Below, in pieces: positions 14,139 through 17,475 of a DNA stretch of 64,000 nucleotides (its first letter is position 1; each line of letters starts with the position of its first letter). Source of the DNA: Nitrospirota bacterium (GTDB taxonomy: Bacteria; Nitrospirota; UBA9217); assembly GCA_963840455.1 (NCBI GenBank), contig CAWIYV010000009.1:96001-160000 (forward strand), given 5' to 3'. A model generated the notes under the pieces. The model was not told the DNA's origin and made no database searches. It saw nothing but the letters and a program-made list of their open reading frames with translations. The position numbers and the translations under genes were made by a program.

Positions 14139-15503
14139 TTATTCAAGATTATCAAACGTGGCCGGTACGATGTTTGAAAGCGCAGGGAATATATGCATGC
14201 ATCCGGTTATGGATTTAACATCGGTTTTGTTGATCATTGCATTGACAACTTCCTGAATGAGCATTGCAGCATGAGGGCCGATGATATGAAAACCGAGGAC
14301 CCTCCGGGAGCCCTTTTCGACAACGGCCTTTGCAAAACCTTTACGCTCCATCATTGCCTCTCCCATCACGGTATCGGAATATAAGGTACGACCCACGAGG
14401 ATCTCGTGATGTTGCCGGGCCTGCTGCTCTGTCAGGCCCACCGATGCTATCTGCGGATGTGTATAGACCGCATAGGGGACGGACTCAAAATCCATCCTGA
14501 TCTTTTTCCTATGTCTGGCATTATGCCATGCCAGTTCAGCCTCCTTGTCTCCGGCGTGAGTGAACATTTTTCTGCCGATGGCATCGCCCAGCGCCCAGAT
14601 ATGCTTTTTGTTCGTCCGGAGATACTGGTCAACTTCTATGAAATTGGCATTGTCCATCTCTATTCCGGCATGTTCCAGCTTCAGCAGGTCGGCGTTGGAT
14701 TTTCTGCCGGCGTTGATCATCAGCTTCGCTGCAGCGATCCTTTTTACTCTGCCGGTCCTGATGTCCTTTACCAGCGCGGTATACCCATTGCTGCCCTGTT
14801 TTACCTCCATCGTCTCGACACCCATATGCAGTTCGATGCGTTTCTCCAATTCCTGTGTTAATAGTTTGGAGATCTCCGGTTCAGCAAAAGGCAAAAGCGC
14901 CGGACCTCTATCAATGACCTTGACCTTCACACCAAGAGCCGAGAAGAAATGCGCATATTCAAGTGATATGAATCCGCCTCCGATCAAGATGATGCTGTCG
15001 GGCTTCCGTGCGAGTCCCAGGACGCTTTCATTGGTCAGGAACGGATACTTTTCAAGTCCCTTGATCCGGGGAATCAATGGTCGTGCCCCGGTGGCTATGA
15101 ACAGCTTCTTTCCTCTGATCTTTTGATCACCGGCTTCAAGGGTATGTTCGTCTATGAAATGGCACTCTTTGTTTATGAAATCGAGATTCTCAGACTCCTT
15201 GATCGCCTTTTGTATGGAGCTTCTGCCTCGGGTGACAACACTTCTCATCCGCTCCATGAGCGCTCTGAAGTTAATATCGATTTTTCCCGAACGGATGCCG
15301 AGCTTTGTATTTTCTTGTGCCTCGATCATTCTGTCAGCGGTATAGATAAGCGTTTTGGAGGGGACACAACCGCTGTTAACGCAGGTTCCGCCTGGATGTC
15401 CCTTATCGACAAGAGCAACGTTCAGGCCTCTTGCAACAGCTTTAAACGCAACCGCCAGGCCGACATCACCTGCTCCAACGACGATAATATCATATGTTTT
15501 CAT
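14139..15503 (-). CDS. Class-I pyridine nucleotide-disulfide oxidoreductase (dihydrolipoamide dehydrogenase / mycothione reductase-like)
   Basis: VVGAG FAD motif, GGTCVNSGCVPSK redox CxxxxC, IGGGFISLE, IWALGD and C-terminal HIFPALS. Confidence 0.9.
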   Translation of the reverse strand: MKTYDIIVVGAGDVGLAVAFKAVARGLNVALVDKGHPGGTCVNSGCVPSKTLIYTADRMIEAQENTKLGIRSGKIDINFRALMERMRSVVTRGRSSIQKAIKESENLDFINKECHFIDEHTLEAGDQKIRGKKLFIATGARPLIPRIKGLEKYPFLTNESVLGLARKPDSIILIGGGFISLEYAHFFSALGVKVKVIDRGPALLPFAEPEISKLLTQELEKRIELHMGVETMEVKQGSNGYTALVKDIRTGRVKRIAAAKLMINAGRKSNADLLKLEHAGIEMDNANFIEVDQYLRTNKKHIWALGDAIGRKMFTHAGDKEAELAWHNARHRKKIRMDFESVPYAVYTHPQIASVGLTEQQARQHHEILVGRTLYSDTVMGEAMMERKGFAKAVVEKGSRRVLGFHIIGPHAAMLIQEVVNAMINKTDVKSITGCMHIFPALSNIVPATFDNLE

Positions 15504-15536
15504 GACCACAACCCTTCACCGCAGAGGCAGGTGTCT

Positions 15537-16079
15537 TTATTCCGGTGCAAGATCAGCTTCCAGATCGATAAAAAGCTGGACGTCCCTGCCAACCATGATG
15601 CCGTTGTTTTCCATTGGCTGATTCCACATGATCCCATAGTCTTCACGGTTTATCATGGCCGATACGGTAAAGCCCATGCTTGATCCGTCGCCAAAGGGGT
15701 CTTTTACCGGTCCTGAAAATTCAACCGAGACAGTTACCTGACGTGTTATGCCATGTATGGTCAGGTCGCCGGTCACCTGTGCCTTGTTGCCGTTCACTGA
15801 ATGTATCTGCGTAGAGGTGAACGAGATGGCGGGATACCTGTCGATATCAAAAAAATCAGGGCTTTTCAGGTGGTCGTCACGTTTCTGGACCCCTGTAAAA
15901 ATGCTTGAGGCATCGATGGACAGTTCTATTGATGAGCTCGTAATGTTCAGAGGATCAAAATAAACAGTCCCTCTAATATTGCTGAACTGGCCCCGAACAT
16001 GCGCAATCATCATGTGGCGGACAGAAAATACTGCTCCTGAGTGATCAGGATCTATGATCCATTTGGCCATTTTACCCAT
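15537..16079 (-). CDS. YceI family protein (no signal peptide)
   Basis: WIIDPDHS..FSVRHMM, RDDHLKSPDFFD, GDLTIHGITR and INREDYGI. Confidence 0.93.
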   Translation of the reverse strand: MGKMAKWIIDPDHSGAVFSVRHMMIAHVRGQFSNIRGTVYFDPLNITSSSIELSIDASSIFTGVQKRDDHLKSPDFFDIDRYPAISFTSTQIHSVNGNKAQVTGDLTIHGITRQVTVSVEFSGPVKDPFGDGSSMGFTVSAMINREDYGIMWNQPMENNGIMVGRDVQLFIDLEADLAPE

Positions 16080-16094
16080 CCTTTTTCAATGGCA

Positions 16095-17141
16095 TCAAAT
16101 AGGCAGAAAACACTGCGGATCCTCGGCCAGGTAATTCGTTATGCCGTGAGAACGTGAAAATTCATACGCTATTGCCCTGCAGCCTCTGCATGCCGACCAT
16201 CTATTACAGGTGCCGCATTTACCATCATAACGAGACCTGTCTCTCAATGAGTTCAAGACCTCTGATGTTGACCATATCTCCCTCAGGGAATCTGTTCTGA
16301 CATTACCGATGGGAACAGGAAGTCTTCTGCAGGGAGTTACTGTTCCGTCGGGCAGGATCGTTAACCCCGAGACGCCTGCCGCGCATCCGCCGGTAGGAAA
16401 GGAGCTCGTATCATCTTCGCCCGCCGGCCTTCTGAACTGTGACGCGACGGGATCGCCCGTGACGATCTTCAGGCTGCCCGTATTCAGCGAAAATATTTTG
16501 CTGTACAGATCCTCCAGCACCTCTTTCGTCAGCATTCTGTCCAACAACGTTCTCCCGCTTCCCGACGGAACCAGCCTTGAAAAACCCAGCTTCTGCACGC
16601 CCATCGAAGAAGCGAGGGCTATAACGTCCAAAAAAAATGAAGCATTTATGTCGGAAAGCGTTGTATTCAAGGCCACTTCTATGCCAGCGTCAAGGAGGCA
16701 TTGTATCCCGGAAAGGGAACGCTTCAGGTTTCCTTTGCCCCGTATTGCGTCATGGATGCCTTCCGGGCCCTCAATGCTTACCTGGACCCCTTTCACTCCC
16801 AATTGGGCAAGTAGTTCGGCGGTATCCCTGCGAATGAGCGTTCCGTTGGAAAGCAGGTAAGCGTCAAATCTATTCTTGGTGAGTTCTTCCAGTATCTGAA
16901 AAATATCCTGTCTCAGGAGTGGTTCACCGCCGGTGATGTTGAAACTGGAAGAAAAAGTAACATCATAGGCCGCTGACCATTCCCCGAGCATATCAGCAAC
17001 TTCACGGATGACACTTCGGATCCCGGTTAAAGACTGCTCATCCGAGCTATTTCCGGATTGATAGCAGTGCGTACATCTGAGGTTGCATCTTTCCGTAAGA
17101 TGCAACTGAATGAAAAATTCCAGGGGATTGTTTATTGACAT
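16095..17141 (-). CDS. Radical SAM/SPASM domain protein, putative peptide maturase
   Basis: CNLRCTHC motif and TGGEP; full SPASM CAAG..PDGTVTPC..IGNV..KCGTCNRWSACRGCRAIAY..EDPQC. Confidence 0.93.
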   Translation of the reverse strand: MSINNPLEFFIQLHLTERCNLRCTHCYQSGNSSDEQSLTGIRSVIREVADMLGEWSAAYDVTFSSSFNITGGEPLLRQDIFQILEELTKNRFDAYLLSNGTLIRRDTAELLAQLGVKGVQVSIEGPEGIHDAIRGKGNLKRSLSGIQCLLDAGIEVALNTTLSDINASFFLDVIALASSMGVQKLGFSRLVPSGSGRTLLDRMLTKEVLEDLYSKIFSLNTGSLKIVTGDPVASQFRRPAGEDDTSSFPTGGCAAGVSGLTILPDGTVTPCRRLPVPIGNVRTDSLREIWSTSEVLNSLRDRSRYDGKCGTCNRWSACRGCRAIAYEFSRSHGITNYLAEDPQCFLPI

Positions 17142-17207
17142 TCGGCTTTCTCTGATCTGATTTCAGGATTAACCACGTACCTTATTGCCCCGCAGTATAG
17201 AAAGAAC

Positions 17208-17262
17208 AGGCAGATATGATGATCATACCGATATCACCGGTAGGTGTCATGCATATCTGCCT
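17208..17262 (-). terminator. Long stem-loop between peptide and radical SAM genes (attenuator or mRNA stabiliser)
   Basis: aggcagatatg...catatctgcct 11-bp perfect outer stem, inner taccg/cggta stem, followed on the minus strand by gttctttct. Confidence 0.6.
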
Positions 17263-17267
17263 TTTTC

Positions 17268-17284
17268 GCTGCCGAACCGGCAAC
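17268..17284 (-). promoter_or_regulatory. Candidate bacterial SECIS hairpin
   Basis: mRNA GUUGCCG-GUU-CGGCAGC; G-initiated loop 25 nt and 16 nt after the two UGA codons. Confidence 0.6.
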
Positions 17285-17407
17285 TTAGCTCTTTCAGCCC
17301 TTTCACTTGTGACATGTCATCCCAGGATGATCTTTTGCAGACTTTTTGAGATTATCCCAGAAAGCAGCCTCTTTCGCGAGGGCTTTTGCCGACAATGTCT
17401 TCTTCAT
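17285..17407 (-). CDS. Putative selenocysteine-containing RiPP precursor peptide, 40 aa (not in ORF track)
   Basis: AAGGAGGTGA RBS; MKKTLSAKALAKEAAFWDNLKKSAKDHPGMTCHK(TGA)KG(TGA)KS-TAA; TGA codons at 17305-17303 and 17296-17294; directly upstream of the rSAM/SPASM gene. Confidence 0.78.
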
Positions 17408-17466
17408 CCTTTTTCACCTCCTTTCCGTCCCTAAGATCGCCCATACAGATAGATGGTATCTATATT

Positions 17467-17475
17467 ATTATAGCA
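17467..17475 (-). promoter_or_regulatory. Extended -10 promoter for the peptide gene
   Basis: Minus strand TGcTATAAT about 60 nt upstream of the peptide ATG. Confidence 0.6.

Follow-up and report, generated by a model that had tools for sequence, protein, structure and literature searches.

A candidate selenopeptide encoded beside a radical SAM/SPASM enzyme, a YceI-family protein and a flavoprotein disulfide reductase in Nitrospirota

The locus and the reading of its small gene

We analyzed a stretch of 64,000 nucleotides (nt) from a Nitrospirota bacterium (assembly GCA_963840455.1, contig CAWIYV010000009.1), called the window here, in whose positions all coordinates are given. Its minus strand carries four genes, encoding a short peptide, a radical S-adenosylmethionine (SAM) enzyme with a SPASM domain, a YceI-family protein and a class I flavoprotein disulfide reductase (Table 1). 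The stop codon of the radical SAM gene lies 15 nt from the YceI start, and the YceI stop lies 27 nt (GTG at 15509) or 33 nt (ATG at 15503) from the reductase start. This confirms the arrangement that had been noted from the sequence beforehand, i.e., four co-oriented genes with short gaps and an extended -10 element, all of which are present as described. The genes that had been reported as lacking are indeed absent as well: a Pfam scan of the 13 flanking open reading frames (ORFs) between 9129 and 24084 found no E1/E2 dehydrogenase gene, no peptidase, no ABC exporter and no gene for PqqD or a RiPP recognition element (RRE), RiPPs being peptides that are made ribosomally and then modified post-translationally.

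Table 1. Features of the locus, in positions of the window.
Feature	Position	Strand	Description
Extended -10 element TGcTATAAT	17467..17475	minus	upstream of the peptide gene
Shine-Dalgarno sequence AGGAGGTG	17415..17422	minus	strong, 7 nt ahead of the ATG
Putative precursor peptide gene	17285..17407	minus	40 codons and TAA, with TGA read as U
Small ORF to the first TGA	17407..17303	minus	34 codons
In-frame TGA codons of the peptide gene	17305..17303 and 17296..17294	minus	
SECIS-like hairpin	17268..17284	minus	stem of 6-7 pairs, G-U in the apical loop, directly 3' of the stop codon
Long hairpin with U-rich tail	17196..17262	minus	candidate intrinsic terminator/attenuator between the peptide and radical SAM genes
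Radical SAM/SPASM enzyme	16095..17141	minus	348 aa, presumed maturase; PF04055 and PF13186
YceI-family protein	15537..16079	minus	180 aa; PF04264
Class I FAD/NAD(P)H disulfide reductase	14139..15509	minus	456 aa; Pyr_redox_2 and Pyr_redox_dim

Public collections carry the peptide as a 34-residue "hypothetical protein" that ends at the first UGA. When TGA is translated as selenocysteine (Sec, U), the frame runs on through a second TGA to a TAA and gives 40 residues, MKKTLSAKALAKEAAFWDNLKKSAKDHPGMTCHKUKGUKS, with C-H-K-U-K-G-U-K-S as the C-terminus. For comparison, an enzyme-alignment search of species-representative genomes returned 352 relatives. We retained the top 80 loci, with identities of 55-86%, the majority carrying the label of Nitrospirota/Thermodesulfovibrionales metagenome-assembled genomes and some that of Deltaproteobacteria or Desulfobulbaceae. 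The peptide homologs at 62 of these loci and the one in the window make up a set of 63 copies. Both TGAs are retained in all 63 and a Cys codon replaces them in none, within a core of consensus C-[HRQ]-K-U-[KN]-[GSA]-U-K-[ST]. The Ser codon 3' of the second TGA alternates between AGC/AGT and TCA/TCC, and such switches between codon families point to protein-level constraint past the second TGA. The frame ends 2-3 codons past the second TGA; 31 copies stop at TAA or TAG, and the other 32 have yet another TGA there. In these 32 of the 63 copies, the third TGA is the stop codon, 9 nt after the second TGA and 1-3 nt ahead of the stem of the downstream hairpin, so that one hairpin would need to specify Sec at two UGAs but allow a stop at the third.

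This hairpin resembles a selenocysteine insertion sequence (SECIS). Across its 57 distinct sequences, 98.4% of cells are paired over six pairs, and compensatory changes occur at four of the six; 23 two-sided cells were counted versus 5.3 after shuffling (a value reached by 0 of 500 shuffles), and slid controls were all far lower. The apical loops read mostly GGUC (19 sequences), GGUCA (16), GUC (9) or GUU (4), and in 52 of the 57 the loop starts 19-21 nt past the U of the second UGA, which is 28-30 nt from the first. The loop presumably resembles the apical loop of the Escherichia coli fdhF SECIS, and the spacing presumably lies inside the distance window accepted for a SECIS. Rfam holds no family matching the SECIS or terminator region, the two matches returned being at chance level and on the other strand only. 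The same genome encodes SelB (383.5 bits, cut-off 242.25) and a tRNA-Sec (66.5 bits, gathering score 47, contig C1). A second tRNA-Sec-like match lies outside the window (G000:C9:389439-389529; 52.9 bits, also above the gathering score of 47). We discarded selB as a discriminator for the system, since 53 of 64 genomes of the family (31 of the 32 of high quality) have it with or without the system.

The features that mark bacterial selenoproteins, namely a conserved in-frame UGA with a coding signal beyond it, a SECIS at the proper distance, and both selB and tRNA-Sec, were all found, and Sec insertion at both UGAs is, from sequence evidence, the most likely reading. The original prediction of a selenopeptide precursor is to that extent upheld. 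We weighed this against the possibility that the UGAs are ordinary stops, that the product has 34 residues and ends in CHK, and that the downstream conservation reflects an RNA element only. The 34-residue form of public annotations, the odd demand that one hairpin serve two UGAs and the lack of any Cys-codon variant among the 63 copies would fit this account; variation past the first UGA nonetheless tracks codon positions, keeping K, G/S/A, K and S/T with switches of serine codon family, the frame always closes 2-3 codons past the second UGA, and the hairpin covaries with SECIS features in a genome that has the Sec machinery. We therefore regard ordinary termination as extremely improbable. 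The peptide itself has no NCBIfam or Pfam match; with five family members and E-values up to 10, only a spurious match to SkfF (E 0.21) appeared. One locus (L048, about 6700-7000) holds a degenerate variant with a broken leader frame and a core reading ...GKVCHKUKSU followed by further residues.

Signals for strong expression recur at related loci. At 57 of 61 of them the peptide start has a Shine-Dalgarno core no more than 20 nt away, and 32 of 61 have a TGnTAnn[AT]T element 25-130 nt upstream of that start, versus 4 of 61 shuffled controls. A two-hexamer promoter/terminator scan of the window gave chance-level counts (5 versus 4.6 expected) and missed both the extended -10, because of its poor -35, and the long hairpin. 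The latter, in the intergenic region between the peptide and radical SAM genes, has a predicted energy of -30.2 kcal/mol (z -3.87), and hairpins of at least -20 kcal/mol strength with a T-rich tail occur in 52 of 60 such regions, compared with 1 of 60 mononucleotide shuffles. It looks like the leaky terminators common behind RiPP precursor genes. The extended -10 that had been predicted is thus present; that it serves all four genes in a single transcript is not established, because of the terminator-like hairpin between the peptide and radical SAM genes.

The radical SAM enzyme and its tie to the peptide

The enzyme matches the radical SAM (PF04055, 75.6 bits) and SPASM (PF13186, 46.4 bits) domains, and its CX3CX2C motif (C19, C23, C26) and SPASM cysteines (C253, C271, C309, C312, C318, C321, C344) are invariant in 22 sequences. 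It scores under every NCBIfam cut-off, including those of NirJ2 (176.5 bits, cut-off 500), AhbD (TIGR04545; 175.1 bits, cut-off 500), ACGX (160.1 bits, cut-off 400), GeoRSP (138.6 bits, cut-off 400) and SbtM (TIGR04082; 132 bits over profile positions 199-516 only, cut-off 350). Some sources name its relatives "AdoMet-dependent heme synthase", a function that we rejected here, the true AhbD of this genome (521.6 bits) being encoded on another contig. The closest solved chain is the sactipeptide-type maturase SkfB, both by sequence (83.7 bits) and by structure (Foldseek E 3e-13, TM 0.59); because the SPASM half is modelled at low confidence, the Foldseek ranking (SkfB, MoaA, PqqE, SuiB, anSME) reflects mainly the radical SAM core and does not discriminate between chemistries. 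No RRE or PqqD was found in the 348-residue enzyme, among its neighbours in the window or in the recurrent neighbour clusters; not every radical SAM maturase needs an RRE.

At 62 of the 80 loci, the enzyme has a peptide homolog upstream. Among the other 18, three have the enzyme less than 140 nt from a contig end, one (L048) has the degenerate variant, one (L034) has a truncated enzyme, and one (L053) has no peptide in the 480 nt upstream of the enzyme; the other 12 form one clade in which the enzyme is preceded by other genes, including one for a PF04020 membrane protein at 10 loci. Of the 15 loci that have upstream sequence but no adjacent peptide, five were checked; the motif occurs exactly once elsewhere in each of these five genomes (0 for the backward control), with its own SECIS in all five and, in four, a terminator-like hairpin as well. 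The clade with the unlinked peptide is the only one where a Peptidase_MA_2 gene recurs.

We extended the comparison to a phylum survey of 401 genomes, calling enzyme orthologs at an E-value of at most 1e-90 and taking the counts, not a P value, as the result. The enzyme is present in 73 genomes and the peptide motif in 76, with 67 having both. Six genomes have the enzyme without the motif, one of these enzymes being a pseudogene, and nine have the motif without the enzyme, of which seven look like chance words; backward-control motif matches numbered five in all across the survey.

Complex modelling of the enzyme with the first 34 peptide residues gave an ipSAE of 0.75, versus 0.01 for the best of three controls, a mark that is attained by 116 of 157 solved complexes and by 2 of 215 mismatched pairs. 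The runs share at least 67% of contacts, with a partner pLDDT of at least 67, and place leader residues E13, A14, W17 and their neighbours against W55, Y59 and 285-300 of the enzyme, positions that vary little or not at all. Direct binding of the leader by the enzyme is supported by this model. With adjacency in 62 of 80 loci, co-occurrence in 67 of 73 enzyme-positive genomes and the model score, the pairing of peptide and radical SAM/SPASM enzyme that had been predicted holds up, and we consider the selenopeptide-enzyme core well supported.

That the enzyme modifies the peptide is a separate matter. The peptide might instead be an unmodified small selenoprotein whose C-x2-U-x2-U motif handles redox equivalents or soft metals, acting as redox or selenium partner of an enzyme that works on a small molecule (tetrapyrrole-like or isoprenoid, perhaps carried by YceI). 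Such a role would sit well with the enzyme's best scores, which are to NirJ2 and AhbD (176 and 175 bits), with the absence of an RRE, with the binding of polyisoprenoids by YceI relatives, with the peptide gene being an independent transcription unit in some genomes, and with no peptidase or exporter recurring nearby. It is harder to reconcile with a model that sets the conserved leader on invariant enzyme residues (0.75 versus 0.01), with solved relatives that are peptide maturases (SkfB), and with the classic RiPP layout of a short peptide gene directly upstream of a radical SAM/SPASM gene at 62 of 80 loci; nor is it easy to see why an unmodified 9-residue motif would keep a 30-residue conserved leader. 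We thus judge an unmodified selenoprotein to be quite unlikely, and prefer a peptide that is matured by the enzyme.

YceI, the reductase and other accessory genes

The YceI protein scores 163 bits against PF04264 (gathering score 23.7) and 119.4 bits against the E. coli-type equivalog NF002994, below its cut-off of 232. It has no signal peptide and no cysteine, and the closest solved chain is TT1927b (1wub, 141 bits), a cytoplasmic polyisoprenoid-binding protein. A YceI gene directly follows the enzyme gene on the same strand in 22 of the 80 loci; a contig end truncates a 23rd copy, and at one further locus YceI stands upstream on the other strand. These YceI-adjacent loci span three separate clades of the enzyme tree, namely the 17-member clade of the window (16 of 17), a second Nitrospirota group, and a group labelled Desulfobulbaceae/Deltaproteobacteria. 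At the genome level the association is closer than adjacency in about a quarter of loci would indicate: the YceI subfamily (E-value of 1e-45 or better) occurs in 66 of the 401 genomes, comprising 63 of the 73 that have the enzyme versus 3 of the 328 that do not. Just 17 of these 63 have the enzyme within 3 kb, 46 being unlinked, and in seven genera of mixed state (47 genomes) YceI and enzyme agree in 43. YceI, which had been assigned to the system from its position, therefore behaves as a genuine co-inherited component, and is probably a dedicated binding or carrier partner.

Around 20 YceI genes that are unlinked, we saw ThiI-like, kinase-like, APS kinase and PNPOx-like neighbours and set them aside; they recur only in close relatives of one family and were read as synteny. 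The PNPOx-like FMN-binding gene comes next after the unlinked YceI on the same strand in 8 of the 20 loci (L117-L124; for example L121:4444-5187), all close relatives.

The reductase matches Pyr_redox_2 (190.5 bits) and the dimerisation domain (89.2 bits), and its active site reads GGTCVNSGC, with GGTCVNSGCVPSK as the CxxxxC redox motif, features that mark it by sequence as a class I pyridine nucleotide-disulfide oxidoreductase. Better-known members of this class do not fit. For dihydrolipoyl dehydrogenase (Lpd), NF004947 gave 491.9 bits against a cut-off of 592 and TIGR01350 gave 346.3 against 408.8, with no E1/E2 gene within 9129-24084; in the operon clade, the C-terminal His...Glu motif, which we take to be the catalytic dyad of Lpd, reads HIFPALSN, with Asn or Asp where relatives have Glu. 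For the mercuric reductase MerA, TIGR02053 gave 344.3 bits against 454.45, and the protein ends in ...PATFDNLE without the C-terminal cysteine pair that is a feature of MerA. The mycothione reductase cut-off is not reached either; the closest solved chains are an archaeal MerA (4ywo) and mycothione reductases. We also dropped the Cys of a GCMH motif before the C-terminal His as a defining feature, as only about 9 of 14 sequences of at least 60% identity have it.

An intact reductase follows YceI in 10 of the 80 loci, in the gene order radical SAM-YceI-reductase; the copy at L032 is broken, and at L025 the reductase stands directly after the enzyme. All of these loci belong to the clade of the window. 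Taking as orthologs those sequences that are at least 56% identical and free of an internal TGA, we counted them in 14 of the 401 genomes, from five GTDB families, and all 14 genomes have both enzyme and YceI; seven of the orthologs adjoin the enzyme, one is at L103, and six are unlinked. Reductase paralogs of 44-55% identity are common in the family with or without the system. The reductase is hence a lineage-specific accessory, found in a minority of lineages, and the original prediction stands for it in part. It does lie beside the enzyme in the window, and its orthologs are confined to genomes with the system, but it is not a core member, being found after YceI in 10 of 80 loci, all in one clade, and in 14 of 73 system-positive genomes. 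A peptide kept reduced by this enzyme, as had also been suggested, could apply to that minority of lineages at most; there, it is reasonable that an oxidised form of the peptide's Cys/Sec residues would be its substrate.

Alternatively, the reductase, and less likely YceI, may be an unrelated neighbour, such as a general thiol, disulfide or metal reductase that stays beside the operon by inherited synteny. Its adjacency is confined to one 17-member radical SAM clade, no ortholog is present in 59 of 73 system-positive genomes, paralogs of 44-55% identity abound in the family with or without the system, and its nearest solved chains are MerA and mycothione reductases, all as this explanation would have it. 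Synteny alone would not lead one to expect that 14 of 14 orthologs co-occur with radical SAM and YceI genes across five GTDB families when six of them are unlinked, or that the L103 locus (genome G348) keeps the reductase with peptide and YceI although the local radical SAM gene has decayed. For YceI, 63 of the 66 subfamily-positive genomes are radical SAM-positive and 46 of 63 copies are unlinked. On balance, we find a chance neighbour somewhat less convincing than an optional partner, and rather doubtful as an explanation. The L103 locus (3164-5556) reads peptide, a 70-residue remnant of the radical SAM C-terminus (42% identity), YceI and reductase, with an intact radical SAM gene on another contig.

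Some reductase paralogs of 45-55% identity have an in-frame TGA in the redox motif, giving GGTCLNxGU in place of CxxxxC (L111:581-1939, L112:4055-5419, L113:200-1558, L114:4049-5416, L115:2114-3484 on the minus strand, and a second copy at L019:12293-13660, also minus). Reductase paralogs with one TGA were found in many genomes of the family. By sequence, these paralogs would be selenoprotein members of the class I flavoprotein disulfide reductases; in the portions searched of a 2026 review of prokaryotic selenoproteins (PMC13188914), the terms "CxxxxU" and "pyridine nucleotide" do not occur.

Other genes accompany the pair in particular groups. A membrane methyltransferase of the PEMT/ICMT family, weakly similar to isoprenylcysteine O-methyltransferase and to the methanethiol S-methyltransferase MddA, directly follows the enzyme in 12 of the 80 loci and replaces YceI there (L030, L033, L037, L046, L052, L059, L061 at 8041-8619, L073, L078, L080, L085 and L092); it could methylate the peptide at a selenol, at a thiol or at its C-terminal carboxylate. 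A DJ-1/PfpI protein and a thioredoxin-domain (DUF255) protein are encoded ahead of the peptide in 8 loci.

Among the annotated recurrent neighbour clusters, no exporter or leader peptidase recurs beside the peptide-radical SAM pair. This fits the earlier proposal of an intracellular product rather than a secreted antibiotic; the redox or metal-binding role that was proposed with it is still conjectural. A secreted antimicrobial RiPP (bacteriocin) would share the general architecture of a precursor with a radical SAM/SPASM enzyme, and a table in the accessible text of the 2026 review lists SbtA, a Sec-containing peptide that we compare below, as "Selenobacteriocin" (PMC13188914). In 81 loci, however, no exporter, leader peptidase or immunity gene is recurrent, and in many genomes the system occurs as a single copy with a vertical pattern, in some of them among housekeeping genes (ArgRS, aminotransferase), which makes a bacteriocin very unlikely in our estimation.

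A proposed mechanism and its relation to known systems

We propose that the locus encodes a selenopeptide system of three co-inherited parts (peptide, radical SAM enzyme and YceI) with an optional reductase, and consider this reading, together with the steps that follow, to be fairly probable. The UGA codons, SECIS, codon conservation, co-occurrence counts and leader-binding model were computed; Sec insertion, the chemistry and the roles of YceI and reductase are what we infer. First, a strongly promoted and strongly translated 40-codon gene would have its two UGAs read as Sec by means of a single SECIS just past the stop codon, and the terminator-like hairpin would yield a large excess of peptide transcript over enzyme transcript. 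The product would be lysine-rich, with a helical leader (KEAAFW...NPGK) and a C-terminal core C-H-K-U-K-G-U-K-S. The radical SAM/SPASM enzyme would bind the leader directly, without an RRE, through W55, Y59 and 285-300, and alter the core. The likeliest chemistry would be radical H-abstraction with a Cys or Sec side chain bound at an auxiliary Fe-S cluster, and the outcome either a thio- or selenoether crosslink or an oxidation like that of SbtM or anSME. The cytoplasmic YceI beta-barrel would act together with the peptide or with what is made from it, probably by binding or carrying it. A dedicated NAD(P)H flavoprotein, present here and in a minority of lineages overall, would probably re-reduce a selenenylsulfide or diselenide form of the peptide.

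Several observations weigh against this proposal. A single SECIS for two UGAs 9 nt apart is unusual, and no Cys-containing peptide homolog exists among the 63 copies, so that the usual support from Sec/Cys homology is absent. The top family scores of the enzyme, about 175 bits, are to the tetrapyrrole enzymes NirJ2 and AhbD, and AlphaFold2 resolves its SPASM half poorly (pLDDT below 50 for most of residues 231-348). The modelled peptide was cut at the first UGA, so that the core is absent from it and the model is silent on chemistry. The terminator-like hairpin separates the peptide gene from the enzyme genes, which may or may not be co-transcribed with it. YceI relatives are known, from the names of solved chains, as binders of polyisoprenoids and not of peptides. 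Of the 73 system-positive genomes, 59 lack the reductase; only one clade acquired it beside the operon, and the identity threshold for its orthologs was set after viewing the list. Finally, related genomes are non-independent samples, and co-occurrence statistics overstate the support that they give.

A more specific version of the proposal is that the system makes a ribosomally encoded redox cofactor or mediator with two selenocysteines, in which the radical SAM enzyme matures the C-x2-U-x2-U core, YceI carries the product and the flavoprotein recycles it in some lineages. If true, this would amount to a selenol relay like that of thioredoxin reductase split into separate genes, and to the first peptide-derived selenium cofactor; we put it forward tentatively, as an unlikely reading at this stage. 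High-Mr thioredoxin reductase is a class I flavoprotein with a C-terminal Cys-Sec redox tail. The likeness lies in a flavoprotein with a CVNxGC motif and a flexible, Sec-containing C-terminal peptide, between which electrons could shuttle, and is an analogy of mechanism only; here, in contrast, the Sec peptide would be a separate gene product, and the pairing occurs in 14 of 73 system-positive genomes.

The closest described system is SbtA/SbtM, a thio(seleno)oxazole system (Lewis et al. 2021), which is also the only selenium peptide with a radical SAM enzyme described in the parts of the literature examined. The available text of two papers presents it as the first RiPP containing SeCys to be installed by a radical SAM enzyme and as restricted to Geobacter and Desulfobacteria, with Sec in a GGUG motif (PMC9204691, PMC11002830). 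As far as these excerpts describe it, the two systems share a short precursor with at least two Sec and a SECIS, beside a radical SAM/SPASM gene, in anaerobic sulfur- or metal-cycling bacteria. They differ in both components. The enzyme studied here has 348 residues, covers the C-terminal 318 of the 516 positions of the SbtM profile, and at 132 versus 350 bits falls outside that family, and the peptide lies outside SbtA (TIGR04081), having no match to the model and carrying K-U-K-G-U-K-S at its extreme C-terminus as opposed to the GGUG/SGUG given in the available text of PMC9204691 and PMC13188914. The accessible portions of PMC9204691 and PMC11002830 say nothing of YceI or reductase partners of SbtA/SbtM. 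The table of the 2026 review, so far as it is available, includes "Selenobacteriocin" and other UxxU families, none of which fits this peptide (PMC13188914). No paper dealing with a K-U-K-G-U-K-S peptide, or with a pairing of radical SAM and YceI proteins, came up in our literature searches.

Two further groups of maturases bear comparison. Those of the SkfB, CteB and PapB type, sacti- and ranthipeptide synthases that form thioethers, likewise combine a radical SAM core with a 7-Cys SPASM domain and act on Cys-rich C-terminal cores; unlike them, the enzyme here is under all cut-offs and has no N-terminal RRE, and the donors would be selenocysteines. In MftA/MftC and PqqA/PqqE, as here, there is no exporter, a radical SAM/SPASM enzyme targets a small peptide at its very C-terminal end, and the product is presumed to be intracellular and linked to redox functions. 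The enzyme scores 122.9 bits against MftC and 75.4 bits against PqqE, both under the cut-offs, and, in contrast to these systems, the locus has no PqqD/MftB chaperone, peptidase or flavin tailoring genes and would involve selenium.

If the proposed reading is correct, the system would be a second, unrelated family of selenium peptide with radical SAM enzyme, and a widespread one (352 relatives; 73 of 401 phylum genomes). Standard selenoprotein screens would miss the peptide family because it has no cysteine homologs, and public records cut the peptide to 34 residues. What would be new here is the co-inheritance of YceI, a protein whose cellular role is poorly understood, and the addition of a dedicated flavoprotein reductase in some lineages. 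The partner pairs peptide-enzyme, peptide-YceI and peptide-reductase are testable, and offer a route to selenium radical chemistry and to the physiological role of YceI.

The wider neighbourhood of the locus contains only two transporter-like genes, a convergent LysE-type translocator (13151-13777, plus strand) and a partial MFS match (23086-24084). The Pfam scan of the flanking ORFs placed an LtrA gene upstream of the operon. Upstream of LtrA, on the minus strand (19512-22020), lie genes for a MarR regulator, a CDGSH iron-sulfur protein, DoxX, a pirin and a second CDGSH protein, a cluster that looks like a redox-stress module.

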